Positions 8,660-43,336 of a stretch of 64,000 nt of DNA are shown piece by piece. The notes under the pieces are model-generated. The model was not told the DNA's origin and did no database searches. It saw only the letters and a list, made by a program, of their open reading frames with translations. Both the position numbers and the translations under genes were made by a program. The number at the start of each line of letters is the position of its first letter. The stretch's first letter is position 1. Origin of the DNA: a virus (taxonomy: Duplodnaviria > Heunggongvirae > Uroviricota > Caudoviricetes); the IMG/VR virus record IMGVR_UViG_3300043119_000318; one strand, given 5' to 3'.

Positions 8660-10998
8660 TACGCTTCCTGACCAACTGCAATTACATCCCAGCGAGAGTC
8701 TGCGGCATTATAAACACAACCAACATAAGTTAGTTTGTTAATAGTAGTCGTTGATGTAGGCAGTGTTGTTCCAACAACTCTAAAACAGTTGGTTCCGCTA
8801 GTAGTCCAAGCAATATTGCGAACTGTTCCATCATCTTTAATGCGGAACATCATTTTCTGTCCGTCTGTAGGAACTCCAGTATCTAAGCCAATCGTCAATG
8901 TTGCTGTGTTAGACAAAGTTAAATTGTACTGATCGTAGGAATCACTAGTCCAACTTTGTGAAGTTGTGCCTGCAGCAACGGCAATTGAATTAACACGCGC
9001 TTTAATACCAGTCGTAACAATCACACGACCCGTACCTTTTGGTGTTAGGGTTAAGTTAATGTTTGTATCAGAACCCTGAGCAGATATAACAGGAATTCCT
9101 GCTGCTGCTGCGCCGACTACTTGTACATAATTTGCAGACCCTGCGCCGCCAATCAGAGTAGTGAATGATCCTGTGGCTGGAGTTGTAGCACCTACGGTCG
9201 TTCCGTTTATCGAGCCACCAGTAATACTTACGCTAGAATCGCTCTGAGAACTGATAGTTCCCAAAGTTGGCTTACCAGTCAGGTCAGCATAGGCACCAGA
9301 GAATAGAGTAGGTTTACCTGTCAAGTCAGCATAGGCACGAGAAAATAGTTCAGTTTTATCTGCTTTATTTCCTAAGGTAGTTGCAATTGTGGTAGAAAAG
9401 TTAGCATCATTTCCCAGCGCGGCAGCAAGCTCATTTAGTGTATCGAGTGTAGCAGGAGCAGTATTAACTAAATTAGAAATTGCTGTTCCAACATATGTTT
9501 CTGTAGCATATCCAGTCAAGCTAGGAATACTTGGCTTGTTAGTTAAGTCTGTATAAGAACCACTAAACAAAGTTGGTTTGTTTAAAATCTGAGCTAACCC
9601 ACTAACTGCATTCCAGTCACTATTAACTTGAGCAGCTGGTATTGTAGGTTTATCAGTTAAGTCATTATAAGAACCAGAGAAAGATCCACCAGTTCCACCA
9701 CTAACAGTAGAGAACTGAAACTTCTTAGTTGTAGCGTTATAGTTTAGATACTTACCATCACCAATTGTTGCCCTATCAACGTCATCTAACCATCTTAAAT
9801 TAACTTCACCTGAACCTGGACCAGTAGCAGCAATTCTACTAATGGCTCTTTCTAGGAATTTAATCTTATTGTTTAATCCAACTATCTCTTGACTTTGGAT
9901 ATAAGGTTGTACTGGAGATGCTGCAGGAGGAGTTACCTCATTCAGCTTAGCCTTAACAACGTTAACTGTATTTAATTCTTCATATAACTTATTAACTTTA
10001 TCTATCTTAGTATCTAATTCATCGTACTTTGAATTGATAAAAATAGAATTTACTTCTCTAATAGTCTCAACTATTTCTTTCTTAGTTTTATCTATTGTTT
10101 TGTTATATTCTTCATTTACGCTATTAATAGTATCAATTTTTTCTTGAAACTTATTAATTTTATCTAAAAATGGCGTTATAGAATTATCATATTTTTCAGA
10201 CAAAGACTTAACTTTAGTTCCAACAGATTCTATATCGAAATATAGATATTTAATATCAGTTAGTAAAGTTTCTTTATTTGTTGCAGTTAATTCACTAGCT
10301 TCTTGTAGTTTAACACTAAGAAGATTTAGATTATGGGATTCTGCTTCTACAACTGACTCTAGTTTTTCTAGTTTAGTTTCGGTATTCTTTAATGCTTCAG
10401 TATTTAAAGAAAGAGCTTTATTGGTATTAAATTCTGTTTCAATTAACTTATTTTTATTACTTTCTACTAATTCATTAATATAATCAATCTTAGAATTTAA
10501 ATTATTGAATATATCAGTTTCTGAATCTACAAATTCCTGTAGTTCATCTACATGTTTCTTAGTTAAAGAAAGTGCTTTATTAATGTTGAATTCTGTCTCA
10601 ATAATTTTCTTTTTATTTTTTGGAACTTCTTCATTAATATATCTAATAATTTTATTAGTTTTTTTATCAACATGTTGTATTAAATCTGATAGAAGATTCA
10701 TATCAGATTCGTTAATTTTAGTTAGATCTTTTTTAAGATATTCTATATTTTCATTGACAACCAATAAGTGAGATAGAAATAATTGTTCTATCTCATCACG
10801 CTGCATTATTACTGAACTATCTCCGCCATTGAAGAAAGACTCTAGTAGTTCAGCTTTTTCGATAGCATCACTGAATTTTTTGTAGTTATTAGAAAAAGAT
10901 TCTAGTAGCTCAATGTTTTGTGGTTTTGGAGTTTTAACTTCCTCAGGAATAATGTTTTGTTTCTCTTTATATTCTGTAAATTTTTTCATCTTTGCCAC
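8659..10998 (-). CDS. Tail fibre-like protein: N-terminal coiled coil, a central tandem LFSGAYADLTGKPT-type repeat module and a beta-rich C-terminus.
   Basis: Coiled-coil heptads. Tandem 14-aa repeats shared with the 1336-aa fibre. Thr/Gly/Ser-rich distal part. Confidence 0.5.
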   Translation of the reverse strand: MAKMKKFTEYKEKQNIIPEEVKTPKPQNIELLESFSNNYKKFSDAIEKAELLESFFNGGDSSVIMQRDEIEQLFLSHLLVVNENIEYLKKDLTKINESDMNLLSDLIQHVDKKTNKIIRYINEEVPKNKKKIIETEFNINKALSLTKKHVDELQEFVDSETDIFNNLNSKIDYINELVESNKNKLIETEFNTNKALSLNTEALKNTETKLEKLESVVEAESHNLNLLSVKLQEASELTATNKETLLTDIKYLYFDIESVGTKVKSLSEKYDNSITPFLDKINKFQEKIDTINSVNEEYNKTIDKTKKEIVETIREVNSIFINSKYDELDTKIDKVNKLYEELNTVNVVKAKLNEVTPPAASPVQPYIQSQEIVGLNNKIKFLERAISRIAATGPGSGEVNLRWLDDVDRATIGDGKYLNYNATTKKFQFSTVSGGTGGSFSGSYNDLTDKPTIPAAQVNSDWNAVSGLAQILNKPTLFSGSYTDLTNKPSIPSLTGYATETYVGTAISNLVNTAPATLDTLNELAAALGNDANFSTTIATTLGNKADKTELFSRAYADLTGKPTLFSGAYADLTGKPTLGTISSQSDSSVSITGGSINGTTVGATTPATGSFTTLIGGAGSANYVQVVGAAAAGIPVISAQGSDTNINLTLTPKGTGRVIVTTGIKARVNSIAVAAGTTSQSWTSDSYDQYNLTLSNTATLTIGLDTGVPTDGQKMMFRIKDDGTVRNIAWTTSGTNCFRVVGTTLPTSTTTINKLTYVGCVYNAADSRWDVIAVGQEA
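9290..9665 (-). repeat. Tandem 42-nt / 14-aa repeats (LFSGAYADLTGKPT family) with flanking sequence. This is copy A of a module shared with the 1336-aa fibre.
   Basis: Near-identical DNA, for example ...aatctgagctaa(c/g)cc...cattcca(g/a)tcactattaacttgagcagctgg..., found at 9580-9665 and 59560-59660. Confidence 0.6.
10400..10620 (-). repeat. Internal direct repeat, two copies about 165 nt apart, in the coiled-coil part of the 779-aa fibre.
   Basis: agagctttattggtattaaattctgtttcaattaacttatttttatt versus agtgctttattaatgttgaattctgtctcaataattttctttttatt. Protein: IETEFNxNKALSL twice. Confidence 0.5.
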
Positions 10999-12170
10999 CC
11001 TTTAATTACTTCAGAAGAGAAGTTAGCCTTGCTAAATTCCATACGATTGACGATCTTAACAGCGCCGCCGGATAGGTGATCAATGGCAACAAAACCTTCT
11101 ACTCCAGTAACTTTGAATCCAGAAGAAGTCTTGATGAACGTGGAGATATGTCCAGCTTCGTTCATCTTGTTGATGATCATTTCTTTGATAGTGGTTAGCT
11201 TCTCAGCTATCTCAAAGATCTTAACGATCTCACGTTTATCATGATTAGCGAAGAAAGCTAGAATCTTCTTACGCTTTTCTTCTTGAACGTCTTTACCCTT
11301 TTGAGTTTTCTTGGACTCGATTTCCTTCTGGAACTTATCATGAATGTAGTCGAAAAGCCCAGTGACATGCGCATTGATATCAGTGATAGGAGTATTGGCT
11401 TTGATCTTGGAGTTGTTGTAGGTTTTAACCTGCATCAATAGATCTTCGTCTCTAGATATTGCATTGAGAGTTAGAGGGTTCGTAGCTTGAAACATAGAAC
11501 CAACATCGGAAAGCATTTTAGTTACTGCAGCAGTCTCTGACTTAGTGAAAGTAGCAGTACCAGAGTAGTCTTTATAGTTAGCGTCGTCCATCCAGATGCT
11601 AGAAACATCCTTGAACTTCTCAACGATACCTTTACCAAAGGAAGCAGACATAGTCTCAAAAGACTTACCTTCGTAGGTAGTATGCCAAACGATACCGATC
11701 TTGGCAGAACGAATCTTAGCACCTAACTCGCTAGAGTAAGGAATGGCATAAACGATAGTGTTTGGATGAAAGGTAACATACTTCTCATCGTCGATGATCT
11801 CGATCTTTTTATCGTCAGTGAACATAAGGTCACCTTGATAAACACCAGACTTGATGCCTAGCTTTGAGAATTCAGAGAGAGCGATCTTGAATTTATCGGC
11901 TAGATCTCCAGACAACTCAGCATCAATCTCGGCTGAAGTCTTATAAACTTTAGGCTCTTTATTGAAGATACCCTTCTTAGCTACGAAGAACTTTCCGTCT
12001 CTTGGATCAATACCAGCAAAGATAGCTGGTGCGCCGTCCCACTTCACAGTGGCAGTTACTTTGGAAGCAGAGTTGCCTGCAAGCATGTCACGGAGGTCAC
12101 GTAGGAAGTTGATCGCCTTGCGAGTGCCAGCTACACCTTCGTTGAAGACTAGGTCCTCGAGGTGTTCCAT
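10986..12170 (-). CDS. ATP-dependent RNA ligase (Rnl1/RnlA-like, nucleotidyltransferase superfamily).
   Basis: It has the KWDG (KxDG adenylation) motif and an EGFVAIDHLSGGAVKIV block resembling T4 Rnl1 motifs IV/V (EGYVAVMKDGSHFKIK). The start was moved to M18 (12170) because a sigma70-type promoter occupies 12228-12256 and GAGGAAAAG precedes that ATG. Confidence 0.45.
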   Translation of the reverse strand: MEHLEDLVFNEGVAGTRKAINFLRDLRDMLAGNSASKVTATVKWDGAPAIFAGIDPRDGKFFVAKKGIFNKEPKVYKTSAEIDAELSGDLADKFKIALSEFSKLGIKSGVYQGDLMFTDDKKIEIIDDEKYVTFHPNTIVYAIPYSSELGAKIRSAKIGIVWHTTYEGKSFETMSASFGKGIVEKFKDVSSIWMDDANYKDYSGTATFTKSETAAVTKMLSDVGSMFQATNPLTLNAISRDEDLLMQVKTYNNSKIKANTPITDINAHVTGLFDYIHDKFQKEIESKKTQKGKDVQEEKRKKILAFFANHDKREIVKIFEIAEKLTTIKEMIINKMNEAGHISTFIKTSSGFKVTGVEGFVAIDHLSGGAVKIVNRMEFSKANFSSEVIKGWQR

Positions 12171-12227
12171 GTGGGTGTTCTTTTCCTCGACTATGTAGGT
12201 CTTTAAACTTTTCAACTTCATACCGTT

Positions 12228-12261: not shown

Positions 12262-12282
12262 AACCCTACTCTCAGTAGGGTT
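12262..12282 (-). terminator. Terminator hairpin of the repeated cassette.
   Basis: AACCCTACtctcaGTAGGGTT, followed on the minus strand by TATCGC and a promoter. Confidence 0.5.
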
Positions 12283-13196
12283 TACCAGGGGTCTCCGGAC
12301 AACTTTACTGATGATGCCATCTTTTCAGATTCAAATTTAAATCGAATCTTCATTATCTTTTTACTACCAGCAGATACACCGATTGATTCATTACCAACGA
12401 TCTCTAACTTGATATCGTATTTACTAAGAGCATCTAGTTTTGGATTATTAATTGGATCCATAACCATTGCTTTATATGGTGCTTTGTTCCCTTGACCAGT
12501 AACTTTAATATAGGGAGGAGATATAACTTCAGCATCCATCCAATCTGATAGCAGATATTTCTTTAGCTCGGGTTGTTTCATTTTCTGTAAACGCAGCATC
12601 ATAACATCACGCATAGCTGCTAAAACCTTTACACCGATCTCTTCAGTCTGTTTTTTAATTCCAGGATTTTCTCGAATATATGGTTTTCTCAGAGTGTCAG
12701 ATGGAGGAAGATTAAACTTTTTAATTGTTTGCGCCAACTGATTCTTATATTCTTCACCAAGTTTAAGTCCAAGGTTTCTATCAACAGTTCCAACACCTGG
12801 ATTCTTAAATCCGATATCACCTTTGCCTTGAGTAGCTTTAGCTGACAGACCGAGGAATCCTTTAGATGGACCAGAGTTAAATTTAACTAAGATGTCTGTA
12901 GGATTTTTCTTCTGATCGACTGGTTCTCCAAAGGCATCAGCCATAGAACCTGGACGAGCAGTCCACCAGACCCCTACTATTGGAGTCTTATATCCATTTT
13001 GTTTCGCCCACTTAATGAATTCTTCTGCCATCACTGCAGATTTACCAATAGCATCAGCTACTTCATCAGCATTTGCTTGTTTGCATCTCTCGTTAAATTG
13101 CTGTTTAGCAGCGTTGTCGTACCATTCGTTTCCGTTTAGAACGTAGCCAGTGTAGATTTCATTGATATCTGATAGTATTGTATTTGCTGTTGCCAT
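12282..13196 (-). CDS. Hypothetical protein.
   Basis: A 304-aa ORF with no confident motif. It contains an SPPY tetrapeptide but no clear SAM-binding motif. Confidence 0.35.
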   Translation of the reverse strand: MATANTILSDINEIYTGYVLNGNEWYDNAAKQQFNERCKQANADEVADAIGKSAVMAEEFIKWAKQNGYKTPIVGVWWTARPGSMADAFGEPVDQKKNPTDILVKFNSGPSKGFLGLSAKATQGKGDIGFKNPGVGTVDRNLGLKLGEEYKNQLAQTIKKFNLPPSDTLRKPYIRENPGIKKQTEEIGVKVLAAMRDVMMLRLQKMKQPELKKYLLSDWMDAEVISPPYIKVTGQGNKAPYKAMVMDPINNPKLDALSKYDIKLEIVGNESIGVSAGSKKIMKIRFKFESEKMASSVKLSGDPW

Positions 13197-13238
13197 GATT
13201 CCAATCCATATGTCTGCATCATGTATTTAGGTCACATT

Positions 13239-14585
13239 TCAACCAAAGAAAGATTCTAGATCTACAGTGTTATCTTCAAAGTGTTCATCAAACATTTTAC
13301 GAGCCAGCTTTGGCAGCTTAGGGTCGTGATTAGATTTGGTCTTCAATTCATTTAGATAACCAGTTTGCTTACCCATTGCGAGATCGACATAGTGCTGAGC
13401 GATCACCTTACGATCAAACTGTTTAATCAGTTCATAGTTGTTCAACTGAATCTGTTTGTATGCTTCTGGGCTCATATCGCAGTACTCTGTGATTTTTTCA
13501 GCGTATTGTCTTGGTGTATAAGAACGCTTCAACATACAATAATTGATACCTGCCTTTAGAACAACTCCATTACCTTCTTCGTTGTTGGAAACACCGTAGT
13601 TAATTGCAATGGGAACAGTACCAATACGCATGGCATCAATCACCACACGGTTGAAATGCTCGCCATAGGTATTTGACCAGCTTGGATCTACAAGAAATTT
13701 AGATGTAGTTAGGATCTCATCACGCTTACCGCCAGAGATAAAGCCAAGGTAGTCGAAGGTGCCAGAGTTTTCAGCATTTTCCCAGATACGCTTACCCAAC
13801 ATTTTGTCAGTTGCATCTGGATCATACTCCTTCGTACAGTAGTATTCTTCCTTACACTTTTCCTTGGACATCATGTATGCAGCTTCCATACCATAACCAC
13901 CTACCAGAGTTTTAACCATTGGCATGTGTGGAACTGCACGAACTAAGTCATCAACACGCTTCCAACGCTTGAATGTTTGAATAGAAAGGATCTTGTTCTC
14001 ACGACCAGCATATCTTGGAGTCTCAGGAATACCAGCGATGTCTTGTGGGTTCAGAATCATTGCACGCGGAACGTTCATGAAGTCAGCTGAATCATACGCT
14101 GCAGGATGCACACATGCCAGACCTGCAAAATGTTGTTCGAACAATTGAATCCAAGTATACAACTTCTTCAGATTACCGTCATGAATAATGGCAACTTGTT
14201 TCGCTTTAACCTTCTCGATCATCGGCAGCCAGTTGACATCTTTCTCAGTGTCTTTGTTCTTAAATCCAAAGATAGATTGCCAGATTACGATGTCATGTTT
14301 GTTAGCATCCTCAACGAATTTATTGATAGACTCTTTAACTTTGTAAGAGTAGTAAGGTGCCATCCAACCATCACCCTGGTGGACAGGATAACCTGAGCCA
14401 ACACCAATCTCCCATCCTTCACCCAGCGTTTCAGGAATCTGAACTGGGCGAACAGTTTTATTACCCTTCAAATATGCAAAGTTAACTTCGTGACCAAGCT
14501 CTTTTAAACCAGCCATCAAATGTTCACAGTGATTGATGATACCACCGAAGTTATTGAACGTATGCATTACCATTAAAATTTTCAT
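13239..14585 (-). CDS. GT-B fold glycosyltransferase (GT4-like) with a C-terminal clamp-binding-like tail (VDLESFFG).
   Basis: The N-terminus MKILMVMHTFNNFGGIINHCEHL...GHEV and the C-terminal EHFNRVVIDAMRIGTVPIA (Ex7E-type) block are GT4 hallmarks. The tail resembles T4 gp43 SLDFLFG. Confidence 0.6.
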   Translation of the reverse strand: MKILMVMHTFNNFGGIINHCEHLMAGLKELGHEVNFAYLKGNKTVRPVQIPETLGEGWEIGVGSGYPVHQGDGWMAPYYSYKVKESINKFVEDANKHDIVIWQSIFGFKNKDTEKDVNWLPMIEKVKAKQVAIIHDGNLKKLYTWIQLFEQHFAGLACVHPAAYDSADFMNVPRAMILNPQDIAGIPETPRYAGRENKILSIQTFKRWKRVDDLVRAVPHMPMVKTLVGGYGMEAAYMMSKEKCKEEYYCTKEYDPDATDKMLGKRIWENAENSGTFDYLGFISGGKRDEILTTSKFLVDPSWSNTYGEHFNRVVIDAMRIGTVPIAINYGVSNNEEGNGVVLKAGINYCMLKRSYTPRQYAEKITEYCDMSPEAYKQIQLNNYELIKQFDRKVIAQHYVDLAMGKQTGYLNELKTKSNHDPKLPKLARKMFDEHFEDNTVDLESFFG

Positions 14586-14599
14586 AATTATCTTTCAGT

Positions 14600-15937
14600 T
14601 TAAAAGAAGTCTTCAAGCGAAGATTTAACAGAGTCTGGATGATACTTCTGCAAAACAGTAGTTCCCATCTTCGATTCTAGGTAGTCATACCAGTCTTGGC
14701 TTTCCCACATACCAGAACCAACACCATTCCAGAGTGGACGCCACTCTGGATGTTCTTTATTTAGACGACGAGATTCAACAAAGTCAAATCGACAGTCTTC
14801 ATATTCCTTAGTACCGAGCTCAAGCATCTTCTCACGGAAGTAAACCACAAGCGAAATACGCTCAGAACCTTCTTGACAGACGATAGGAGTATTTCCGTGC
14901 ATAACTTCATGGTTGTTGATCAGAAGCAAATCACCGGGACGAACGTTAACAGCTACACGATACTCAGGTGCAACAAGGTAAGCACCGCTGTAACGACCAT
15001 CGTTGGATAGAGTCAACAAGTTAGACAACCCGCTAGTCAAGTCACCGGCATCGTAGTGAGCAGCTGTGCGGAAAGTTTTGTTAACAGTTACAGTGGTGAA
15101 TGGTGTTCCAGGAACCAGGAATTGCTTATCAATCTTCGAAGCAGCTTCCATTTGATTCCCATAACGCCATGGGAGCAAATCTTTAAATCCAGCAGCAAGG
15201 GTTTGTAGGAAAGGAAAAGCCATGGCAAACTTCTCAGGATTCTTCTGAGTATAAGAAGTGGCGCGACCATAAGGGATGCGTGGATAGCGATCGAACCAAC
15301 CAGCAATACCAGAGTTAACAGAGTTAGCATAGGTGGTGGCGCAGATCAGTTTCTCAGCCACGTACTTGGCGGAAGCAATCTGCTCATCCTCGGAAAGAAT
15401 TTTAGTGGCATCTACCCATGCTTCAAAGTTGAACTTATCTTTCTGAACACGGTCAATGGACCATACATTGGAACGATTCGAGATGACACCTTTCTTAGAA
15501 GCATGCTTCTTACGAATTTCTTCTACTGGATCTTCGCCGAACAGGTTACCAGTTGGCTTGAGAAAATAGTCAACCATGTCATACTCATACTCAGTGACCC
15601 AATCGCGATTGCCTAACTTATCAGCACGCGGACCTGCAGCCAAACCTCTGTTCTGAGTTTCGATGGCAGCTTCACGTAGACCTGCATAGGCAGCATCCTG
15701 CTGTTCTTTGGTGAAGAAGTTCTTGCGAAACTTCATGATGATTCTACGCTCGTCCTTATTCTCAATCGAATCACCATATTCTGGCGGAGCGTACACATCA
15801 CAATCTTCTTCCAACAGAACATCGTAGTGAGACTCGTCTAGAAATTGACCCAACAAATGAGTGCAATCATGTTTTCTATCAGCGACAATAACCTTTACCA
15901 TATAATTCTCCTTAGAACTTAAAACCTTCGTAGCCAT
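14600..15937 (-). CDS. 2OG-Fe(II) dioxygenase, a candidate nucleic-acid base oxygenase (TET/JBP-like), with C-terminal SSLEDFF identical to the tail of this phage's DNA polymerase.
   Basis: An HYD (HxD) motif, about 55 aa to NNHEVMHG, then ERIS (RxS) about 13 aa later. The final 7 aa are identical to those of gp43. Confidence 0.55.
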   Translation of the reverse strand: MATKVLSSKENYMVKVIVADRKHDCTHLLGQFLDESHYDVLLEEDCDVYAPPEYGDSIENKDERRIIMKFRKNFFTKEQQDAAYAGLREAAIETQNRGLAAGPRADKLGNRDWVTEYEYDMVDYFLKPTGNLFGEDPVEEIRKKHASKKGVISNRSNVWSIDRVQKDKFNFEAWVDATKILSEDEQIASAKYVAEKLICATTYANSVNSGIAGWFDRYPRIPYGRATSYTQKNPEKFAMAFPFLQTLAAGFKDLLPWRYGNQMEAASKIDKQFLVPGTPFTTVTVNKTFRTAAHYDAGDLTSGLSNLLTLSNDGRYSGAYLVAPEYRVAVNVRPGDLLLINNHEVMHGNTPIVCQEGSERISLVVYFREKMLELGTKEYEDCRFDFVESRRLNKEHPEWRPLWNGVGSGMWESQDWYDYLESKMGTTVLQKYHPDSVKSSLEDFF

Positions 15938-17639: not shown

Positions 17640-18203
17640 TTAGTCTCCAATCAATGCAAGTTCAGCATCAATGTCTTCACCCTTCATAATTTCTGAAGTC
17701 GAAACTTGATACTTATTTTTAACAAACTCAGAGAAAGTCTTTTGCTGAATAATTGGAAGCCAGAAGTCTTTGCTATCGGTATCCTTCAGACGATACTTTT
17801 TATCTTCAACAACGCCATCTTGATCTACTTTGCTGTACCATCCATTGCTTGGTTTAACGACATGTCCAGATTCTAGAGCAATGTCAAGTAAGCCAGACCA
17901 ACGGCTAATGCCGCCGTCAAAAGATACGCTAACAGGTATTTTAGATTTCTCACGAACATAACGACTCTTTTCTACGTTGATGATAAAGTTGTAACCAACA
18001 ATTTCAGTTCCGTCTTTTTCTTGTTGACGACCAAGAATGAAGATATTGTCAGCAGAGTAGTAAGAACCAGTGTTATGAGTAACTACTCCATTTTCTAACA
18101 CATAATGTTCAACATCCTTTACTGAAATGTCATATACCTTCTTTTTACCAACAGGTGTTATCGATTTAATTTTCATTTTGCGGTTTCCTTTTACATTTAT
18201 CAT
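17640..18203 (-). CDS. uvsX: UvsX recombinase C-terminal fragment, preceded by the C-terminal half of a split intein (IntC).
   Basis: The N-terminal 44 aa, KKKVYDISVKDVEHYVLENGVVTHN, are followed by the +1 Thr (intein blocks F/G). The remainder, GSYYSADNIFILGRQQ...FINVEKSR...SGLLDIALESG, aligns to T4 UvsX from MTGG|TGVMYSADTVFIIG onward. Confidence 0.75.
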   Translation of the reverse strand: MINVKGNRKMKIKSITPVGKKKVYDISVKDVEHYVLENGVVTHNTGSYYSADNIFILGRQQEKDGTEIVGYNFIINVEKSRYVREKSKIPVSVSFDGGISRWSGLLDIALESGHVVKPSNGWYSKVDQDGVVEDKKYRLKDTDSKDFWLPIIQQKTFSEFVKNKYQVSTSEIMKGEDIDAELALIGD

Positions 18204-18870
18204 TATGCCATCTTTTTATATTAGAGGCAGTCGTCACAGTATCACAATGAGAACATTTATATTTCTGTTCGGGTTTCAATTTTCTTGGGTTAACCCAATC
18301 GGAACAATTAAATCTACCATCAGAAATTGATACTCTAATTATTTCTTTAGTATGCACATTTTGTAACATTCTAAGACCCTTCTTTCCGATCTTCTCTCTA
18401 TGTTCATTAGATTTCGGTTTTTTGGCGACCATCTCAACCCAATCAGATATCTGTTTTTCAGTTCTATAATTCTTTCCAGAATGTATATTAGATAATTTCT
18501 GTTTAGTTTCTTCAGAATGGTGTTTACCATAGAAATTGTTACCTTCACCTGAATACTGTATCGATAGAATTTTTGAACGTTCTTTTTTACAGTATTCAAA
18601 TAAATGAGAATTTATAGATCTGGCGCTTTGACCAACCCCAATTCTACTCATCGAATGCCATGCATGAACCAGACTACTAGTTTTATACATTTTATACAAC
18701 AACCAATGCGCCAAATAGTGCTGTCTTGCAGTTAGTAGAACTAGATTCTCTTTAGAGTCATCACCACCCATACAACAAGGTATTATATGATGAGATTCCT
18801 TATAGTCATCTAGTTTTGGATTAGTTTTAGCATCTAAAACTAAGTTCTCGTAAATTTTATAATAGTTCAT
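18166..18870 (-). CDS. Free-standing HNH homing endonuclease.
   Basis: HHIIPCCMGGDDSKENLVLLTARQHYLAH (HNH) near the N-terminus. It lies in a different frame between the two uvsX halves. It has its own TATAAATA late promoter and a GGAGG Shine-Dalgarno sequence. Confidence 0.75.
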   Translation of the reverse strand: MNYYKIYENLVLDAKTNPKLDDYKESHHIIPCCMGGDDSKENLVLLTARQHYLAHWLLYKMYKTSSLVHAWHSMSRIGVGQSARSINSHLFEYCKKERSKILSIQYSGEGNNFYGKHHSEETKQKLSNIHSGKNYRTEKQISDWVEMVAKKPKSNEHREKIGKKGLRMLQNVHTKEIIRVSISDGRFNCSDWVNPRKLKPEQKYKCSHCDTVTTASNIKRWHNDKCKRKPQNEN

Positions 18871-18886
18871 AGTTTCCTCCTACAAC

Positions 18887-18894
18887 TATTTATA
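18887..18894 (-). promoter_or_regulatory. T4-type late promoter TATAAATA serving the HNH endonuclease gene.
   Basis: The minus strand reads TTTTATAAATAGTTGTAGGAGGAAACTATG: TATAAATA, 16 nt, then ATG, with a GGAGG Shine-Dalgarno sequence. Confidence 0.55.
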
Positions 18895-18906
18895 AAATTT
18901 TGAATC

Positions 18907-19815
18907 TTAGTATTCAGCTGATTCCATACCAACAGCCAAATTTTTAGCCTCTACCCATTCATTATTAATTAAAAATTTGTGTTTATCTGAACAAATAACC
19001 TTATATCCATCTTCAAATTCCACCTCAAAACACTCAGGCTCGCCATCTTCTAGTGTTTCTGGATTCCAGGTATATGTTACTTCTTTGCTACCATCAAGGG
19101 TTTTAACTAAATCACCAACTACGAAATCCTCAATAGATTTATATGTTCCATCTGATAGTTCTATTTTCGTGCCTGCAACCAAACAACCACCACCAACGAT
19201 GTCCTTTGGATACAATCCGATTTCTTTATACGTATGGTTCACAACAACCATAGGAATATCCTTCATGGTCAAGTGTGGAGTTACCATACGGAACAACGAC
19301 TTCATTTGCTTGGCACGGCTCATATCGGCAACCGACTTACCGTCCAAGGCATCCTCGACTTCTTTCTTAGAAGCAAGATTACCAATGGAGTCAATGATGA
19401 TCATGATTTTATCACTACGCTCGATGACAGAAAGTTGCTGCATGATATCAAACTTCAACTGTTCAACGTCCATGATTGGAGTATGCACAACACGCGAAGT
19501 ATCAATACCAAACGAATCGAAGTAAGACTGTGGAGTGCCGAACTCAGAATCATAGAACAGCAAAGCTGATTCTGGATACTTGTCCATGTATGACTTTGCC
19601 ATCAGCAAAGAGAATGCGGTCTTAAAGTGTTTCGATGGACCTGCCCACATCGTGAGTCCAGGAACGAATCCACCGTCAAGTCGACCTGAAAGTGCGACGT
19701 TGATTACGGGAATAGAAGTGGGAATCATATCCTTCTTCTGAAAGAACTTTGATTGTGCAAGAATCGCAGTTTCTTTAATTGTAGTATTTTTCTTAATTTT
19801 ATCTAGTATGCTCAT
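18907..19815 (-). CDS. uvsX: UvsX recombinase N-terminal fragment (RecA-like core, Walker A/B), fused in frame to the N-terminal half of a split intein (IntN).
   Basis: A RecA/UvsX-like N-extein up to IVGGG. From Cys211 the sequence reads CLVAGTKIELSDGT...SDKHKFL (Hint blocks A and B) and ends after about 93 aa. Confidence 0.8.
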   Translation of the reverse strand: MSILDKIKKNTTIKETAILAQSKFFQKKDMIPTSIPVINVALSGRLDGGFVPGLTMWAGPSKHFKTAFSLLMAKSYMDKYPESALLFYDSEFGTPQSYFDSFGIDTSRVVHTPIMDVEQLKFDIMQQLSVIERSDKIMIIIDSIGNLASKKEVEDALDGKSVADMSRAKQMKSLFRMVTPHLTMKDIPMVVVNHTYKEIGLYPKDIVGGGCLVAGTKIELSDGTYKSIEDFVVGDLVKTLDGSKEVTYTWNPETLEDGEPECFEVEFEDGYKVICSDKHKFLINNEWVEAKNLAVGMESAEY

Positions 19816-19833: not shown

Positions 19834-20385
19834 TTATGGGTTCCATCGTGAATGAGGAACATCGAATACAAAAGTTATTCGAACACAGTCACCGGTGTTT
19901 TCTGTTCCATGTAATAATTTATTGTTGAACCAAAGTAGAGTACCAGGTTCAACATCAACAAATTCGTCACCTACATGGTAACGATAGGTTCCTTGAATTG
20001 ATAGATGATATCTATCTTTTGTTTGGTAGTAGCTACCGTCATCGATATGTAAACCAACATGACCACCTACAGGTAGAGACAAAAAACCACACCGTTTGAA
20101 AGTGTTAAGTCTATTTCGCTTTAACCAAGAAATGATTTCTGTGTGTCGATGATATGCTGGTGTGGCTACAGAAAGCTCACTATCTCCAACGAAATCTTTA
20201 GCGGCGCGTACTGCACCAATAACCAGCTGCAGCACGTCCGCATTAATATCATCGTATCCACGATCTAGAAGGGACTCAACTTTTTCGAGTTTCTTTTGAG
20301 AACCCCAATCTTCTGGATACTGTTCTAGCTGTTTGAGTATCTTAGAGACATTGATTCCTGTCTTAATAACTCTGATGTTTTTCAT
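19834..20385 (-). CDS. Cupin / 2OG-Fe(II) oxygenase-like protein.
   Basis: HIDDG (HxD) and LLHGTEN (distal His) motifs. Size and fold are typical of cyanophage 2OG oxygenases. Confidence 0.45.
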   Translation of the reverse strand: MKNIRVIKTGINVSKILKQLEQYPEDWGSQKKLEKVESLLDRGYDDINADVLQLVIGAVRAAKDFVGDSELSVATPAYHRHTEIISWLKRNRLNTFKRCGFLSLPVGGHVGLHIDDGSYYQTKDRYHLSIQGTYRYHVGDEFVDVEPGTLLWFNNKLLHGTENTGDCVRITFVFDVPHSRWNP

Positions 20386-20638: not shown

Positions 20639-21256
20639 TTATGTGTAATGACAATACGTTGATAGTATGTATTTTGAGTTGCTGATAGGTGGAAGTGCCT
20701 TGTGTGGGTACATCCACATTGGAGGGAATACTACTATTCTACCTCGCCTTGGGTTAATACTCAAATCTTTTTCTGGATAAAAACTTGAGTCATTGAAAAC
20801 CGTTTGTCCGCCGTCTTCAACATCATTCAGATAAAAGAACATCGAAAGGAACCTGCGCGCAGAAGAATAATCTCCAACGTCACTATGCCAGTCAAACTTA
20901 TCCGTATCGTTTACACTATACTTCTTAAGTCTAAGTTCTTCATATCCAATTTTAGTTGGGAAGAATTCGATCTCACATTTTTCTTTATAGAACTCAACTA
21001 GATTTTTACTTAAAGTGTAGAGCTCTATACAGTTTTCTTGAAATTCTTCTTCTTTAGTTAAGTTTAACTCGTCGAATCTTTTCTGATAAGAACCATGCCA
21101 AGTAGCTTCTGTAGATTCAACATTTAGTGAAGCATCAAATTTTTCAATAAGCTCATTGCATAATTCATCGCTCAATACGTCGTCAAGAATCATAACGTAA
21201 TCAGATAGCTTTTTCAAAAGAAGTCCTCCAATGAAGATTGTTGTTCGGTTTTCCAA
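20639..21256 (-). CDS. 2OG-Fe(II) oxygenase, prolyl-4-hydroxylase-like.
   Basis: HSDVGD (HxD) and a distal His in PPMWMYPHKA. P4Hc-type composition. Confidence 0.55.
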   Translation of the reverse strand: MENRTTIFIGGLLLKKLSDYVMILDDVLSDELCNELIEKFDASLNVESTEATWHGSYQKRFDELNLTKEEEFQENCIELYTLSKNLVEFYKEKCEIEFFPTKIGYEELRLKKYSVNDTDKFDWHSDVGDYSSARRFLSMFFYLNDVEDGGQTVFNDSSFYPEKDLSINPRRGRIVVFPPMWMYPHKALPPISNSKYILSTYCHYT

Positions 21257-23700
21257 CCAAGTGGTTCAATAATAGTTGACAGTGCATCAAGAAAGGTTTT
21301 CTGGAACTGTAGTTCATAGTCGATATACTTATGTATGTTAAATTCCTTGGGTAGTTCTTGACTAAAGGAAATAACATCCTCGTGAAATGGATTTGGTTTC
21401 TTCACATAGATGAATCGAATCTTATCACCGTCTCTAATGAGAGGATATTTATTACCCAGGGATAGCTTCTTCACATAGTGATTAAACAGCAACGATCCAC
21501 GAACATGAATAGGAGTACCCTTTGTGTAGATAGGAGATCCGGCATACTGCTTCATACCATTCACACCACGAGGGAAAGCTATCTGTTCAACACTTAGTTT
21601 ATTAAACTCTGTTCTAAAGTCCTCAATATACTTATGTAGAACCTCTTGTTCTCCGGCAAGAATAACGTTGATTGAATCTTTAAGTTTTTTACGAATAACG
21701 GCAGGCGTAGAGGACTTGACCATCTCCAAACCCATGACCTTAATCTTAGGCTTTGCGTACTGCACACCTTCAGAGTTATGGACGTTCAGAATGTAACGCT
21801 TCTTGGCAGTCCAGATACCCTTGTCTGCCAAAACTTCTCGCTTCATCTGCATCTTCTGATCATAGGCATTCATATAATCAGCCAATTCTTGATACGTATC
21901 ATCGATGAACGGTTGGAAGATCTCATTACAGATCTTATCCATGTACTTGATCTTTTGCTCAGTAGTTTTATCAACACAGGTATGCTCGACCAGAGCTTCA
22001 AGCGAAAGATAAATCGAGTCAGTGTCAATCGCAATGATGTAATCTTTACCCTTGGTCTTCAGGATGCGATCCATGTACTTGTTGAATTCATTAGCCATCC
22101 AACGAATAGACAGTTGACCCGAAGTCGTGATACCTTCAGCTAACCGTAGATCAAAGTAACGAAAGTACGAATTACCAAGCGCACCATAAGCTGAGTTAAG
22201 TGCAATCTTCATAGCCATCTGCAGATTATTCAGACGCGATATCTCTTTACGTAGGTCGTTGTTACTCTTGTCGTGTTCATACTGCTGTTCAATCTTCAAC
22301 ATCTGCTTCTTGAACTTGCTTCGGTCAGTATACATCTTTTCCATCAGCTTGGGTAAGAACCCCTTGACGTCTTTACGATAACACCAGCCGTTCGCAGTCA
22401 ATGCTAAGTTCTTTTCCTTGGCATAGGAAGTATCAACTTCTTTATTAAGCAGCTTATCCACTGTACAGCTAATCTTCTCGTGGCTCAAAGTCTCCGGAGA
22501 CATGTTATACTGCATGATCAAGTGAGGGTACAAAGAGTTCAAGTCAAAGGAAGCAACCCACTTATGCAAACCAATCAGTGGATCTTTAACGAACGCACCT
22601 TCGAACTGAGCATCTTTACCTGAGTATTCCTTCTGGGGAATAACGATACCTTCATCACGCAGGTGATTATAGATGATGGCATCCCACATACGAACTGGAC
22701 TGAAGACGTCCTCGTAGTTGATCTTGGCTTGATATGCCATGGTTAAACACAGTTCAATTAGACGCATCTTATCTTCTAGACGAACAACCAGTGCAACGTC
22801 TTGAATGTTATAATCAACGAACTGTTGCCAGTAGTTTGTATAGAAGTCTTTGAAGTCCTCGCCAGGATTCTCTTTCTTGTTATCGCCAAGTTCAACCTCT
22901 GCAATATAATCAAGACGATAAGACTCTTGCTTCGTGTAGGTAAACTTCTTATACAGATCAAGATAATCTAAGTGTGCAATACCTTGGATGTCATAGGACA
23001 ACTCTTCATTACCCTTGATGAAGATCTTACGCTCATTGACGATACCATGTGGTGACAGTTTGTTAGAACTGTTCTCGCCAAGTTCTCGTTCAATGCGACG
23101 AACAAGATACGGAATGTCGAATAGGTTAGTGTTCCATCCAGTGATAACATCAGGGTAGTTCTTAGACCAATAGTTTAAGAATTCACGGAACAACATGATC
23201 TCGCTATCACACATGATGAAGCGGACGTTTTCGTGTTTGTTCACGTAAGGTTTAGTACCAAACGTAATAGTCTCTTTGAGTTTAGAGTCTGTGATTGTAA
23301 TTAGGATAACTTCTTCATTGGCATTCTTGATATCTGGGAAACCGTTTTCTGTTTTGGTTTCAATGTCGAATGTGAATACACGAATCAGATCCATATCCCA
23401 TAGGATATCTGACTGGTAGTTATCGCTTAAATACTGGTAAGTGTAGTTGGTGTTACCATAGATCTGGAATCCCTCAACACCTTCGTAAGTCTTAACGAAC
23501 TCACGCGTGTCACGGATACTTCCAGGATGGACTTCATCAACGACTGTTCCATCCAGAGTCCGCCATTCACTGTCGGGCTTCTTGGATGGAACATAGAGGG
23601 TTGGAAAGAATTCGCGCTTTTCGTTGAAGGGAATTCCGTCTTCATAACCCCTTACTGCTAACCTATTACCAAGTGGATATACATTTGTATAAAACTTCAT
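21214..23700 (-). CDS. 43: Family B DNA polymerase (T4 gp43 homologue) with a C-terminal SSLEDFF clamp-binding-type tail.
   Basis: Exo motifs (FDIET), pol motifs (DTDS, KxxxNSxYG) and a T4 gp43-like C-terminus (T4: SLDFLFG). Confidence 0.9.
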   Translation of the reverse strand: MKFYTNVYPLGNRLAVRGYEDGIPFNEKREFFPTLYVPSKKPDSEWRTLDGTVVDEVHPGSIRDTREFVKTYEGVEGFQIYGNTNYTYQYLSDNYQSDILWDMDLIRVFTFDIETKTENGFPDIKNANEEVILITITDSKLKETITFGTKPYVNKHENVRFIMCDSEIMLFREFLNYWSKNYPDVITGWNTNLFDIPYLVRRIERELGENSSNKLSPHGIVNERKIFIKGNEELSYDIQGIAHLDYLDLYKKFTYTKQESYRLDYIAEVELGDNKKENPGEDFKDFYTNYWQQFVDYNIQDVALVVRLEDKMRLIELCLTMAYQAKINYEDVFSPVRMWDAIIYNHLRDEGIVIPQKEYSGKDAQFEGAFVKDPLIGLHKWVASFDLNSLYPHLIMQYNMSPETLSHEKISCTVDKLLNKEVDTSYAKEKNLALTANGWCYRKDVKGFLPKLMEKMYTDRSKFKKQMLKIEQQYEHDKSNNDLRKEISRLNNLQMAMKIALNSAYGALGNSYFRYFDLRLAEGITTSGQLSIRWMANEFNKYMDRILKTKGKDYIIAIDTDSIYLSLEALVEHTCVDKTTEQKIKYMDKICNEIFQPFIDDTYQELADYMNAYDQKMQMKREVLADKGIWTAKKRYILNVHNSEGVQYAKPKIKVMGLEMVKSSTPAVIRKKLKDSINVILAGEQEVLHKYIEDFRTEFNKLSVEQIAFPRGVNGMKQYAGSPIYTKGTPIHVRGSLLFNHYVKKLSLGNKYPLIRDGDKIRFIYVKKPNPFHEDVISFSQELPKEFNIHKYIDYELQFQKTFLDALSTIIEPLGWKTEQQSSLEDFF

Positions 23701-30503: not shown

Positions 30504-31166
30504 TTAAGCGTCAAACGTTGAATCTGCCTCAACAGCTACGTAGTAAACCAAATCAGTGGAGACGCTTTTGAACCTAGAGATTTTCTTGCTAGAGATGCTA
30601 ACTGCGTAGTCACCTGCCAACATCTTCAGGTTTTCAACCTTCAAGTTTACATGGAAAGATTTATCGGTAGTTCCAACCAACTTGTTGTAGTTGTTACCAG
30701 TTGCATTCTTCTTGTCTCCGACTTGAAGCATCAAGCGAGCACTGTCACCAACGATGGACAAATCTTCAGCGCGAAGAACAGATGCAGTGCGGCGGATCAT
30801 ATCTAGCATAGCTGCGGTCAAGGTAAAGTCAACGTCGCTGGCAGGGAAAGTGATGCTCTTGCTAGGAACAGTCAAGACAGAAGCATCCGCACCATAGAAC
30901 TTGATATTGGCATCACCCTCTTTGATGTTGATATACTTCTCTGCAAAATCGAGTTCAGGGTCACTGAACAGTGACATTGCACCCAAGAATTCATTCAGGT
31001 CGTAGATACCAATTTCAGATGGGATAGTTTCAGCAATGGTAACATCGGACATGACGTTCTTCATTGCTGAAATGGTTGACAACTTCGTTCCTGGCTTCAA
31101 CAGGATATTGCTGTTGATGGAAGCGAAGTTCTTAAAAATGGCTAGGGTGTCTTTAGATAGTTTCAT
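30504..31166 (-). CDS. 45: Sliding clamp (gp45 homologue).
   Basis: N-terminal MKLSKDTLAIFKNFASINS matches T4 gp45 MKLSKDTTALLKNFATINS. C-terminal YYVAVEADSTFDA matches NYVVALEADSTHDF. Confidence 0.85.
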   Translation of the reverse strand: MKLSKDTLAIFKNFASINSNILLKPGTKLSTISAMKNVMSDVTIAETIPSEIGIYDLNEFLGAMSLFSDPELDFAEKYINIKEGDANIKFYGADASVLTVPSKSITFPASDVDFTLTAAMLDMIRRTASVLRAEDLSIVGDSARLMLQVGDKKNATGNNYNKLVGTTDKSFHVNLKVENLKMLAGDYAVSISSKKISRFKSVSTDLVYYVAVEADSTFDA

Positions 31167-35112: not shown

Positions 35113-37209
35113 TCAGGCGACGTACCCGATGAACTTGTTCAGCAGCACACGAGAAGTCTTTTTATTTCCCATAAATTTCGAGAAATTCCTAGCGATTGCA
35201 GCGGCAGACATATCAGAAGCAGCTTTAATTTCACCGTCATTAATTTTAGTCGAGCTCGCAGGAACCAAAAACAATTCGTCACGACCAGCATTTGTCAAAG
35301 ATGCATAACCAAACTCTTTGAATTCTTTACGAATGTCAACAATAGTTTGCGTCATATCAGCACGAAACTCTGGAATATTATTGTTGATGGCGTTTCGAAT
35401 CACACCCGAATTATTGTTGCAGATGTAAAAACCCACAACATTAATTCGGTATCGGTCCTTAATCATATTCAAAATAGAGCAGGTTTGCACAGTTTCGTTA
35501 GATGAAAATTCATAATTCTTTTTCGTGTAAATATCACGAACGAAATGTTTATTCTTGAAATAAACATGCCTACCAAAAGAATCCTGCTCCCATCCGTTAG
35601 GTTGGAGGCGACCTTTATTAGAATACAACTCTCCACCCTCTCCATCAGTCAGAGTGATCAGAGTCATTTTCTCGATGTTTCGATTCTTGATAAATTTGTC
35701 GATATAATTATACATATAGACCAATGCCTCATTCAAAGGAGTTCCTCCCAAACTATATCCGCCCTGTTTCTGACGGAAAAAGGAATAGGTAGTCAACGTC
35801 CGACGAATCATAGTATTGAAATCAGCAGAGGACATTTTATCAGAGAACAACTCTAGCAGATTGAAAGTGCCAGAATTATTGCAAATCACTTGTTTGTCTG
35901 CTAGCGAATCAGGAGAATATGGCTTATAGATATTATCTCCTTTATAATAGCTAGTGAATGCAAACACCTGATACGGAATGTTGGCACGCTGGCAAAACAT
36001 CGCCAGATTAATCACCTGTTTGATAGTGTCTTGAATAACATCAATCATAGAACCAGACCAATCCAGAAGGAAAACCATACCATGGTTCTTGCCAGCAGGA
36101 ATAGTGGTGACACGTTTGAACAAATCGTCGTTCAACTTATACGACCAAACCTTGCCCATATCCAAAGAACCAGACTTCGAAGTCTGAGCTCGTTTGTACA
36201 ACGTGGCAGATTTACGCATCTCGAATTCTTTCACGAGATAACTCACAACTCGATCAGTCTCCTGCTTAAACTGTGAGATATACATCGAATCCACATACTC
36301 ATCAACTTCCTTAGTCTCATTCAGGATGGTTTTGTATCCAACGATCGGGTCTTCTTTATATTGAGACTCCAACTCATAATACGTATACCGAACAGAAGAA
36401 TCTGCCAAGGAAGCCAGTTTTTTATCGAAAGCATCTGCAGTCTTGGCTTCCAGATCTTCTTCCTCAATTTTCGGTTTGCGAATAGACCTTGACGACTTCC
36501 GATCAGAATCATCATCGTACTCGTCTTCATCATCTTCGTCATCATCATAGGAAGAAGAGCTACCGAATTCTTCATCGGTATCATCTTCGTCTTCATCATC
36601 GAAGTAGTCTGAATCATCACCACTGAATTCGTCATCGAATTCCCGTTTATCTGCATCATTCTTATGCTTAGAGTACTCCCTAATCTCGTTAGCCAAGGAG
36701 ATGATATCGTCGATGGTCTCGGTGTTTTCTGCTCGGTTAACGAATTGCTTTTCTTTAGGTGTGAACGTGACTCCGCAATCAAAACCAACCTTAAAGTAAA
36801 GATTGAGTTTGTCAATCAGAAGCAGGGTATTCAGATTCTTCGCAGATTTAATTCCAAAGAAATCTCGCTGATTCAGTTGGCGATATCCCTCAGTCATCGT
36901 TTTACGAATACCCGGATAGAGTCGCTTGATCAGTTTTTCTACACGAACATCTTCTAGGATGTTCATGTACGACATAAGCGCAGGATTTTCTTTAATGGGT
37001 TTGATGTAGGAGACATCAGTGAACAGAGCGTGACCGACCTCATGTCCGATCAACATCGACTCAATCTCCGGCGTGGTGTCTTTCCAATTAGGAAGCGTCA
37101 ACGTCCGATTCTTAATGTCGAAGGACGCGGTGGAAGTTGGCGCACGAACAACGGAGATGTTCTCGGTAGCCAGCAGCTTGGCTGACAGATCAAAGGTGTT
37201 TTGTTTCAT
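35113..37209 (-). CDS. cobT: CobT-like protein with an acidic Asp/Glu tract and a C-terminal von Willebrand A domain.
   Basis: A long DDEDEDD... tract. vWA-type MVFLLDWSGSM (MIDAS DxSxS). Paired with cobS as in marine myoviruses. Confidence 0.6.
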   Translation of the reverse strand: MKQNTFDLSAKLLATENISVVRAPTSTASFDIKNRTLTLPNWKDTTPEIESMLIGHEVGHALFTDVSYIKPIKENPALMSYMNILEDVRVEKLIKRLYPGIRKTMTEGYRQLNQRDFFGIKSAKNLNTLLLIDKLNLYFKVGFDCGVTFTPKEKQFVNRAENTETIDDIISLANEIREYSKHKNDADKREFDDEFSGDDSDYFDDEDEDDTDEEFGSSSSYDDDEDDEDEYDDDSDRKSSRSIRKPKIEEEDLEAKTADAFDKKLASLADSSVRYTYYELESQYKEDPIVGYKTILNETKEVDEYVDSMYISQFKQETDRVVSYLVKEFEMRKSATLYKRAQTSKSGSLDMGKVWSYKLNDDLFKRVTTIPAGKNHGMVFLLDWSGSMIDVIQDTIKQVINLAMFCQRANIPYQVFAFTSYYKGDNIYKPYSPDSLADKQVICNNSGTFNLLELFSDKMSSADFNTMIRRTLTTYSFFRQKQGGYSLGGTPLNEALVYMYNYIDKFIKNRNIEKMTLITLTDGEGGELYSNKGRLQPNGWEQDSFGRHVYFKNKHFVRDIYTKKNYEFSSNETVQTCSILNMIKDRYRINVVGFYICNNNSGVIRNAINNNIPEFRADMTQTIVDIRKEFKEFGYASLTNAGRDELFLVPASSTKINDGEIKAASDMSAAAIARNFSKFMGNKKTSRVLLNKFIGYVA

Positions 37210-42184: not shown

Positions 42185-42719
42185 CAGTATCAGTCTCTAT
42201 AAAATCGTTGAGAGAAGGATTTTTTGGTTTAGCTTTGGCTGGCTTTTTCTTTGTTAAGAAAGAATCATCGAATGAGGTATTGCTTTGCATATAATCGATA
42301 TACATATTTTTATAATCACCAATATCATCTTGATCTTGTAGTGCAAATACATCAAACGGTATCTCTTGAATTAGTTTATTCTTTATGTAGGAATGTTTCT
42401 TTTCTTTTTGAATCCTGCGCAAGAAGGCGTAATAAATTATCTGCGTGAAATAAGAAAATGGATTGCTATACTTATCCGCGTCAAAATTATTGAAATATTG
42501 TATGCAATTTTCTACACCATCAAGAATCATATCATCGCGATATGAGTAATTAATAAAATTTGGTTTATATGATAAATGCGTGGCTATTTTTAGAATACAC
42601 TCACCAATATAATTGCTAATGATTGGAGGTTCTTTCCCAGTTTCAGCTGCGATCTTAATTAATTCTTTGTGTTCTTTAATTGCAGCTAAAAATTTAGCAT
42701 TATCAACATAGTCTGCCAT
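42165..42719 (-). CDS. 55: Late-transcription sigma factor (gp55 homologue).
   Basis: Similar to T4 gp55 across its length. C-terminal PSLNDFIE resembles T4 gp55 SLDFLYE (clamp-interaction). Confidence 0.75.
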   Translation of the reverse strand: MADYVDNAKFLAAIKEHKELIKIAAETGKEPPIISNYIGECILKIATHLSYKPNFINYSYRDDMILDGVENCIQYFNNFDADKYSNPFSYFTQIIYYAFLRRIQKEKKHSYIKNKLIQEIPFDVFALQDQDDIGDYKNMYIDYMQSNTSFDDSFLTKKKPAKAKPKNPSLNDFIETDTDESEQQ

Positions 42720-42865: not shown

Positions 42866-43336
42866 TCAATTAAGTGTTTTGTTACCCTCTATGAAGAACT
42901 TGTCTAAGTCTTCTTTATCTAATTCATCTAACGGTGGAAGTCCGACCATAGCAGATAAACGATTCAATTTATCCCTAAGCTCTTCAAGACTCATAGGATT
43001 TTCTTCTAGGTCGCCGTCTTCATTCTCGTAAACAGATGCTTCACGTTCTGCTGGCTTGACTAGAGCGATGTACTTGCTGACCATCAATTGATGCATCTCT
43101 TTCACATACATCACATGATACCTATCTAAGAAGTAGTTAGGATCTGCAGAGAACGGACATAATGGCGAAGCTGTCATTTGCTCCACTGCCTTATCGTCTA
43201 TCATCTGGTGTGTTATCTTAACGACGACTGGATATTTTAATTGCACGGTATCCTCGTCTTCGTCTACTAAAATTGCAAGTAAGTGCTCTCCAGAGATCAA
43301 TTTTACAGCAACGAAAAAATCGTTTTCATCTATCAT
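42866..43336 (-). CDS. Hypothetical acidic protein (uvsW.1 position).
   Basis: A 156-aa ORF coupled to uvsW. Confidence 0.3.
   Translation of the reverse strand: MIDENDFFVAVKLISGEHLLAILVDEDEDTVQLKYPVVVKITHQMIDDKAVEQMTASPLCPFSADPNYFLDRYHVMYVKEMHQLMVSKYIALVKPAEREASVYENEDGDLEENPMSLEELRDKLNRLSAMVGLPPLDELDKEDLDKFFIEGNKTLN

Follow-up and report, generated by a model that had tools for sequence, protein, structure and literature searches.

Clamp-binding tails on proteins of phage T4 are textbook knowledge. L-x-x-F-F is the core of the PCNA-interacting protein (PIP) box, Qxx[LIVM]xx[FY][FY], and in eukaryotes PIP boxes tether base-modifying and repair enzymes, such as DNMT1 and UNG2, to PCNA, with modification following the fork. 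Here, we analysed a 64,000-nucleotide stretch of DNA (hereafter, the window) from an uncultured T4-like myovirus of the Caudoviricetes (IMG/VR record IMGVR_UViG_3300043119_000318), in which the C-terminal peptide of the replicative DNA polymerase gp43 recurs on a TET/JBP dioxygenase and, in a related form, on the adjoining glycosyltransferase. These tails probably bind the sliding clamp gp45, and we describe how the locus compares with the closest known systems.

The last 11 residues of RB69 gp43 were co-crystallised on the hydrophobic patch of gp45, and the C-terminal epitope of T4 gp55 binds the clamp (PMC2988020, PMC7892883), while the C-terminal motifs of gp43, gp55, and gp33 act as interchangeable clamp ligands (PMC2988020). 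Among modifying enzymes, binding to gp45 and activity at the replisome were reported for T4 alpha-glucosyltransferase (Sommer et al. 2004, as cited in PMC13216743 and PMC6024577), and pull-down confirmed this interaction in 2026 (PMC13216743).

TET/JBP (5mYOX) pathways of phages, comprising glycosyltransferases, amino-acid transferases, kinases, and GNATs, have been described, including a ParB-independent 5mYOX class associated with glycosyltransferases (PMC8256090, PMC13229309, bioRxiv 2023.12.21.572611). How such enzymes find fresh DNA is not addressed in the recent accessible 5mYOX papers, which instead present a ParB activator for one subclass. A separate route to hypermodified thymidine employs a 5-hydroxymethyldeoxyuridine (5-hmdU) DNA kinase and an amino-acid:DNA transferase (ADDT) (PMC8989533). 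We found no mention in the open-access literature of a polymerase-type clamp motif on TET/JBP, GT1, TET-associated glycosyltransferase (TAGT), ADDT, or GNAT enzymes.

C-terminal tails in the window

The open reading frames (ORFs) and tails under comparison are as follows.

21214–23700, minus strand: gp43 DNA polymerase ORF, 828 aa, with the C-terminus ...GWKTEQQSSLEDFF before the stop
21214–21237, minus strand: codons and stop of the gp43 tail SSLEDFF, which aligns with the RB69 gp43 C-terminus
14600–15937, minus strand: TET/JBP dioxygenase ORF, 445 aa, with the C-terminus ...HPDSVKSSLEDFF before the stop
14600–14623, minus strand: stop and seven codons of the dioxygenase tail SSLEDFF, the proposed clamp-binding motif
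13239–14585, minus strand: glycosyltransferase ORF, 448 aa, with the C-terminus ...EDNTVDLESFFG before the stop
13239–13265, minus strand: codons and stop of the glycosyltransferase tail VDLESFFG
42165–42719, minus strand: gp55 ORF, 184 aa, with the C-terminus ...KNPSLNDFIETDTDESEQQ before the stop (also given as ...PSLNDFIETDTDESEQQ)
42195–42218, minus strand: near-terminal gp55 motif PSLNDFIE, followed by the acidic TDTDESEQQ; counterpart of the T4 gp55 epitope
30504–31166, minus strand: gp45 sliding clamp, the proposed docking partner (Pfam gp45-slide_C and DNA_PPF)

The terminal heptapeptide SSLEDFF was common to gp43 (...EQQSSLEDFF) and the dioxygenase (...VKSSLEDFF), and the adjoining glycosyltransferase had the C-terminus DLESFFG, such that the L-x-x-F-F core was found in all three tails. 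The original prediction, made from the letters of the window, had listed these tails together with that of gp55; ORF reading on the minus strand confirmed the four sequences and their coordinates, and the claimed identity of the last seven residues of polymerase and dioxygenase was borne out. The glutamine of the PIP box at position −3 was present in gp43 (QSSLEDFF, in agreement with QxxLxxFF) and in 28 of 120 dioxygenase homologues (QQSLEEFFG), its place being taken by lysine in the window dioxygenase and threonine in the glycosyltransferase.

The two copies of SSLEDFF are encoded by TCT TCG CTT GAA GAC TTC TTT and TCT TCA TTG GAG GAC TTC TTT, respectively. Three of the seven codons differ, all synonymously, and the flanking DNA is unrelated between the genes, which places the likeness at the protein level and rules out an origin of the shared tail by duplicated DNA or gene conversion. 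Given the amino-acid composition of the window itself, the expected number of L[ED][DES]FF occurrences at the ends of the 70 likely gene products was 4.9e-4, and three were observed (Poisson P about 2e-11); the probability of an identical terminal heptapeptide was about 2e-7. The looser pattern L[EDNQ][DESK]F[FLIYM] occurred eight times in 20,571 residues, with six of the eight lying within 10 residues of a C-terminus.

Three other minus-strand proteins were set aside as tail bearers because they did not fit the strict terminal consensus: a 698-aa CobT-like protein (35113–37209; ...LLNKFIGYVA), a 156-aa Sm-like protein adjoining gp55 (42866–43336; ...DLDKFFIEGNKTLN), and a 126-aa adaptor-like protein (63471–63851; ...APLEFFLG).

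Polymerase, clamp, and late sigma factor

The 828-aa protein is the orthologue of gp43, a family-B replicative polymerase, and aligned end to end with the RB69 and T4 enzymes (E about 1e-134), with ...EQQSSLEDFF falling opposite ...EKKASLFDMF of RB69. The product of 30504–31166 aligned over its full length with the gp45 clamps of RB69 (1b77/1b8h) and T4 (1czd), with E about 1e-25. The ORF at 42165–42719 encodes gp55, as shown by its match (E 9e-58) to PHROG 234, which is annotated 'late sigma transcription factor'. The T4 tails, read from NC_000866, were ASLDFLFG for gp43 and PSLDFLYEAND for gp55 (epitope SPSLDFLYEAND), and PSLNDFIE of the window gp55 matches PSLDFLYE of its T4 counterpart. 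The alignment with RB69 gp43 and the match between the two gp55 proteins uphold the original identification of the gp43 and gp55 peptides as counterparts of T4 clamp motifs. No gp33 homologue was identified among the window proteins.

As with the sliding-clamp-binding motif of T4 and RB69, the peptide is short, hydrophobic, and acidic, and lies at the C-terminus or close to it, preceded by a variable linker; polymerase and late sigma factor bear it, and the phage encodes the gp45 trimer. The consensus here, SL[ED]xFF(G), is nearer to the PIP-box core LxxFF, whereas that of T4 is SLDFLFG. A second difference concerns the bearers, which in T4 are gp43, gp55, and gp33 (PMC2988020), whereas here DNA base-modifying enzymes are among them.

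The TET/JBP dioxygenase

The label 'dioxygenase' given in the original prediction holds by both Pfam and fold, and can be narrowed. The 445-aa ORF encodes a TET/JBP (5mYOX) Fe(II)/2-oxoglutarate DNA base dioxygenase (Tet_JBP, PF12851; E 3.4e-25; 88.6 bits against a curated cut-off of 34.9), whose HxD...H...R catalytic residues H294, D296, H347, and R360 occupy invariant alignment columns. The AlphaFold2 model had a mean predicted local distance difference test (pLDDT) score of 85, and its best Foldseek matches in the PDB were CcTet, NgTET1, and human TET2. Translation probably starts at M13 (ATG at 15901); this internal MVKVI start is found in most homologues and in one JGI gene call, giving 433 aa, and the listed 445-aa ORF shares 26 nt with the helicase gene.

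In an alignment of 22 diverse TET proteins, extending down to 38% identity, F445 was invariant and L441 and F444 were at least 90% conserved, while the linker between KYHPE and the tail varied in both sequence and length. The last five residues of the model had a pLDDT of 52, compared with the mean of 85. Low pLDDT behind a variable linker is what a short linear motif on a flexible tether usually shows.

The enzyme most likely oxidises thymine to 5-hydroxymethyluracil (5-hmU), as judged by gene context. The window proteins scanned and the sister-locus cassettes yielded no C5-methyltransferase, sister cassettes carry the kinase/ADDT pathway for 5-hmU, and most published 5mYOX loci of such type are without a methyltransferase (PMC13229309; bioRxiv 2023.12.21.572611). 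As in the described 5mYOX pathways (Burke 2021, Pyle 2024, PNAS 2026), TET/JBP would act first and modifying transferases would follow, mostly with no C5-methyltransferase nearby, which implies thymine oxidation. The published work concerns enzymes of about 300 aa and a ParB activator, whereas the window enzyme belongs to a roughly 440-aa clade of T4-like phages with extra N- and C-terminal regions and the tail. Beside ParB, a clamp tether would offer another means of holding a 5mYOX enzyme on DNA.

Two further 2-oxoglutarate-Fe(II) oxygenase genes, at 19834–20385 and 20639–21193 (both minus strand), flank a thioredoxin gene beside the polymerase; their products (Asp/Arg-hydroxylase-like and 2OG-FeII_Oxy_3) are both without the tail. 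In GenBank, the TET/JBP homologues of the cultured phages Cr30 (L136), DLP6 (L137), HTVC112P (L142), and S-CBWM1 (L144) are labelled 'SNF2 DNA repair protein', apparently a misannotation that has propagated.

The glycosyltransferase

The gene directly downstream of TET encodes a Glycos_transf_1 protein (PF00534, E 3.6e-9; the match to Glyco_trans_1_4 was weak), and the profiles of the T4 alpha- and beta-glucosyltransferases (PF11440 and PF09198, respectively) gave no match to it. The adjacency of the two genes is kept in at least 40 related loci. The glycosyltransferase presumably acts on the hydroxymethyl base made by TET, in which case the window pathway would yield 5-hmU bearing a sugar, a product resembling base J.

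The original prediction had read the tails as a route onto gp45 by which modification would accompany replication, a mechanism said to be undescribed for T4-type glucosyltransferases. The conserved motif common to gp43 and gp55 stands, but the claim of a lack of precedent does not, since T4 alpha-glucosyltransferase was linked to gp45 as early as 2004, according to the later papers that cite that work (PMC13216743, PMC6024577). The comparison itself was also misplaced, as the window enzyme is a Glycos_transf_1 protein rather than a T4 alpha- or beta-glucosyltransferase. The tail was absent from T4 alpha-glucosyltransferase (...FKEQFDIITK; PF11440), T4 beta-glucosyltransferase, the RB33 beta-alpha-glucosyltransferase (ba-gt), and Roth34 TAGT (the last two being TAGT-family enzymes from T4-like phages), which rules it out as a general trait of T-even glucosyltransferases.

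The two systems are alike in that a phage DNA glycosyltransferase is linked to the clamp, putatively so in the window, with action proposed right after replication. They differ in that the T4 enzyme lacks a gp43-like tail, whereas the unrelated window enzyme has a canonical polymerase-type one. In addition, the T4 substrate base is made before replication, as hydroxymethyldeoxycytidine triphosphate (hmdCTP), whereas oxidation by TET/JBP must occur on DNA.

Conservation of the tail in relatives

The original prediction depended on the tail being conserved in homologues, and this proved to be the case. The TET tail [ST]L[ED]xFF(G/A) was present in 120/120 of the closest homologues (68–95% identity) and was kept, within the roughly 440-aa clade, in 50%-identity cluster representatives down to about 40% identity. 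The glycosyltransferase tail L[DE]x[FL]F[GA] was present in about 115/120 homologues (56–100% identity) and in 40 of 42 glycosyltransferases of the related loci. Across 132 related viral loci, all complete polymerases ended in [ST]L[ED]xFF[GA]?, and nearly every complete TET and glycosyltransferase gene carried the tail.

The tails of TET and polymerase also tended to resemble each other within a genome. Among 45 dereplicated genomes, same-genome pairs matched at 2.40 of the four variable positions, compared with 1.81 for shuffled pairs (P about 5e-5 by a naive permutation uncorrected for phylogeny). In one locus (L088), LDEFFA was found together on polymerase, TET, and glycosyltransferase.

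Other enzymes in sister loci

The glycosyltransferase follows TET in only part of the clade, and other cassettes take its place elsewhere. The following enzyme families in the sister loci also bore tails.

TAGT (PF20691): tail in 5/5, NTLDEFFG
ADDT (PF18724): tail in 38/39, GLExF-x
GNAT acetyltransferase group 1 (GNAT families): tail in 25/28, PSLE[ED]FL-x
GNAT acetyltransferase group 2 (GNAT families): tail in about 9/10, DL[NQ]xF[LS]

In a single locus (L072), polymerase, TET, GNAT, and ADDT all carried a tail. The peptide thus recurs on five or six unrelated folds, a pattern not easily accounted for unless these proteins bind a common partner. Among the neighbouring families in sister loci, the tail was absent from GATase-like (0/58), amidoligase-like (0/24), and DUF6267 (0/17) proteins, and it was likewise absent from the helicase and UvsX.

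Several features of these loci recall thymidine hypermodification via 5-hmdU DNA kinase and ADDT (PMC8989533), as genes for Ploopntkinase3, ADDT, GNAT, and radical-SAM proteins lie downstream of the dioxygenase in sister loci. The published phages take 5-hmdU from the nucleotide pool, whereas TET/JBP would form the base on DNA here; moreover, ADDT and GNAT carry a clamp-type tail, and the window has GT1 in place of the kinase/ADDT cassette. The 5-HMUDK and ADDT cassette was not found in the window and was found in sister loci (e.g., L072 and L026).

The stretch from TET to DUF6267 (window 12282–14585; loci L001–L132) is a hypervariable 'modification island'. In the window, it holds GT1 and a 304-aa ORF without a family match; the genes found there in relatives are of the GATase-like, GNAT, ADDT, radical-SAM, P-loop kinase, TAGT, or amidoligase-like type. 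The far edge of the island is marked by the conserved 411-aa DUF6267 protein (10986–12221, minus strand), whose KxDG-like motif TVKWDGAP is reminiscent of motif I of nucleotidyltransferases and ligases.

Distribution among phages

By megablast against deposited phages, the region matched only Synechococcus myophages, with about 71% identity over the helicase gene, and the window proved identical to contigs from JGI metagenomes. The tail was found in cultured T4-like phages: in Stenotrophomonas phage DLP6, it stands on polymerase (...TLDSFFA), TET (...TLGDFFV), and TAGT (...DLSSFFN) and is absent from the sugar-nucleotide transferase, and TET of the Kyanoviridae phage C48C1 has the C-terminus ...SLEEFFV. 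Caulobacter phage Cr30 departs in part from this pattern, its TAGT-like protein ending in ...DLSKLF; the polymerase gene of Cr30 was not found in the two genome regions searched. The TET homologues of the non-T4-like phages HTVC112P, P12024L, and S-CBWM1 had no tail, nor had the roughly 300-aa 5mYOX representatives, which rules out the tail as a general trait of phage TET enzymes. Among the phages examined, the tail was confined to T4-like phages, and a gp45 gene was confirmed in the window, DLP6, and Cr30.

Proposed mechanism and alternatives

We consider that the tails are a gp45-binding motif that was gained independently by enzymes of post-replicative DNA hypermodification, and give this reading a probability of roughly 0.7. 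The sequence [ST]-L-[ED]-x-F-F-(G/A) would be the sliding-clamp-binding motif of this lineage, terminal on gp43 and near-terminal on gp55, and enzymes that modify already-synthesised DNA would have gained it separately, with a short linker of variable sequence in front. The clamp loader would leave gp45 trimers on newly replicated DNA, and each enzyme would dock its tail in one of the three hydrophobic pockets of such a trimer and scan the duplex in one dimension, processively. Hypermodification would thereby be coupled to replication in space and time, and several enzymes might share one clamp as a 'toolbelt'. Compared with PIP-box recruitment to PCNA, the predicted arrangement is viral, strictly C-terminal, and spread over a whole multi-enzyme hypermodification pathway rather than a maintenance methyltransferase alone.

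A wider scheme is possible, although we hold it to be doubtful. The clamp might be the organising platform of the entire post-replicative hypermodification pathway in a widespread T4-like clade, where the TET/JBP thymine dioxygenase and GT1, TAGT, ADDT, and GNAT would carry graded variants of the motif and compete for the three pockets behind the fork, with motif strength helping to set the order and completeness of modification. Such a system, reached through repeated capture of one peptide, would be a viral counterpart of epigenetic maintenance coupled to PCNA.

Several points weigh against clamp binding or limit its reach. In T4, promoter swaps indicate that the contact between alpha-glucosyltransferase and gp45 does not set the glucosylation ratio (PMC13216743), and clamp binding therefore need not matter much quantitatively. 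The choice of gp45 as the partner comes from analogy with T4 and RB69. Ploopntkinase3, a family that includes 5-hmdU DNA kinases and is expected to act on DNA, bore the tail in 0/32 cases (e.g., L065:7433–7981 and L072:15149–15754), which makes a rule that DNA-acting enzymes carry tails imperfect, and the radical-SAM proteins also lacked it (0/4). The ADDT and GNAT tails (GLExFA and SLEEFLV, respectively) depart from the polymerase consensus, and their binding could be weak or absent. In Cr30, the TET tail is degenerate (...TGATLF) and ADDT has none. The co-variation between TET and polymerase tails is only suggestive, as shared ancestry inflates the statistic, and for the base oxidised by the window TET, gene context suggests thymine without establishing it over 5-methylcytosine.

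Among the alternatives, the one that survives best is that the tail docks on another shared partner, such as gp32, the clamp loader, the polymerase itself, or a 'modification complex' scaffold. Acidic–aromatic tails do make other contacts in replisomes, as with E. coli SSB and with T7 gp2.5 and helicase, and the departure of the ADDT and GNAT variants from the polymerase consensus would suit such a partner, given that clamp binding is read here from sequence. However, L-x-x-F-F is a PCNA-type clamp motif, gp55 bears the tail motif where its T4 counterpart has the clamp epitope, and any other candidate would also have to recognise the clamp motif of the polymerase. Moreover, the TET tail is identical to a polymerase tail that aligns with the gp45-binding C-terminus of RB69 gp43 (PMC2988020), and we thus regard a different partner as unlikely.

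It is much less probable still that cassette shuffling produced the tail as a functionless by-product, left at a recombination junction or copied as a short sequence with genes downstream of the helicase. Cassette exchange does occur, as the variability of the island between TET and DUF6267 attests, but tail-bearing and tail-less genes are interleaved within the same islands, and the polymerase, which lies outside the island, has the tail in all genomes. Furthermore, conservation is at the amino-acid level with synonymously different codons, and the motif keeps to the exact C-terminus across 40–95% identity while the linker varies. Coincidence, whether by chance or through the composition of an AT-rich phage proteome, has nothing but the shortness of the motif in its favour and is negligible in view of three occurrences against the 4.9e-4 expected, the heptapeptide probability of about 2e-7, and conservation in hundreds of homologues.

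The UvsX locus

UvsX is encoded in the window by two ORFs within 17640–19815 (minus strand), comprising an N-terminal part at 18907–19815 (Pfam RecA) and a C-terminal part at 17640–18203. The former runs into an intein-like start (...GGGCLVAGTKIELSDG...), and in the latter, T4_UVSX_C comes after an initial intein-splicing C-terminal block (...VVTHNT). A free-standing ORF for a NUMOD3 homing endonuclease lies between the two parts (18166–18870). From the sequence, the UvsX intein looks to have been disrupted or split by its endonuclease.

Implications

The tail is a simple sequence signature by which DNA-acting modification enzymes can be picked out in metagenomic T4-like phages, and adding or removing it could tune the activity of such enzymes on clamp-loaded DNA in vitro. 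The presence of the tail on polymerase, TET, and TAGT of the cultured phage DLP6 makes the idea open to genetic test. For the phages themselves, many bases of every new genome must be hypermodified ahead of host nucleases or packaging, and the polymerase-type tail on five or six unrelated enzyme families offers a concrete answer as to how this may be achieved, namely the predicted tethering of the enzymes to gp45.

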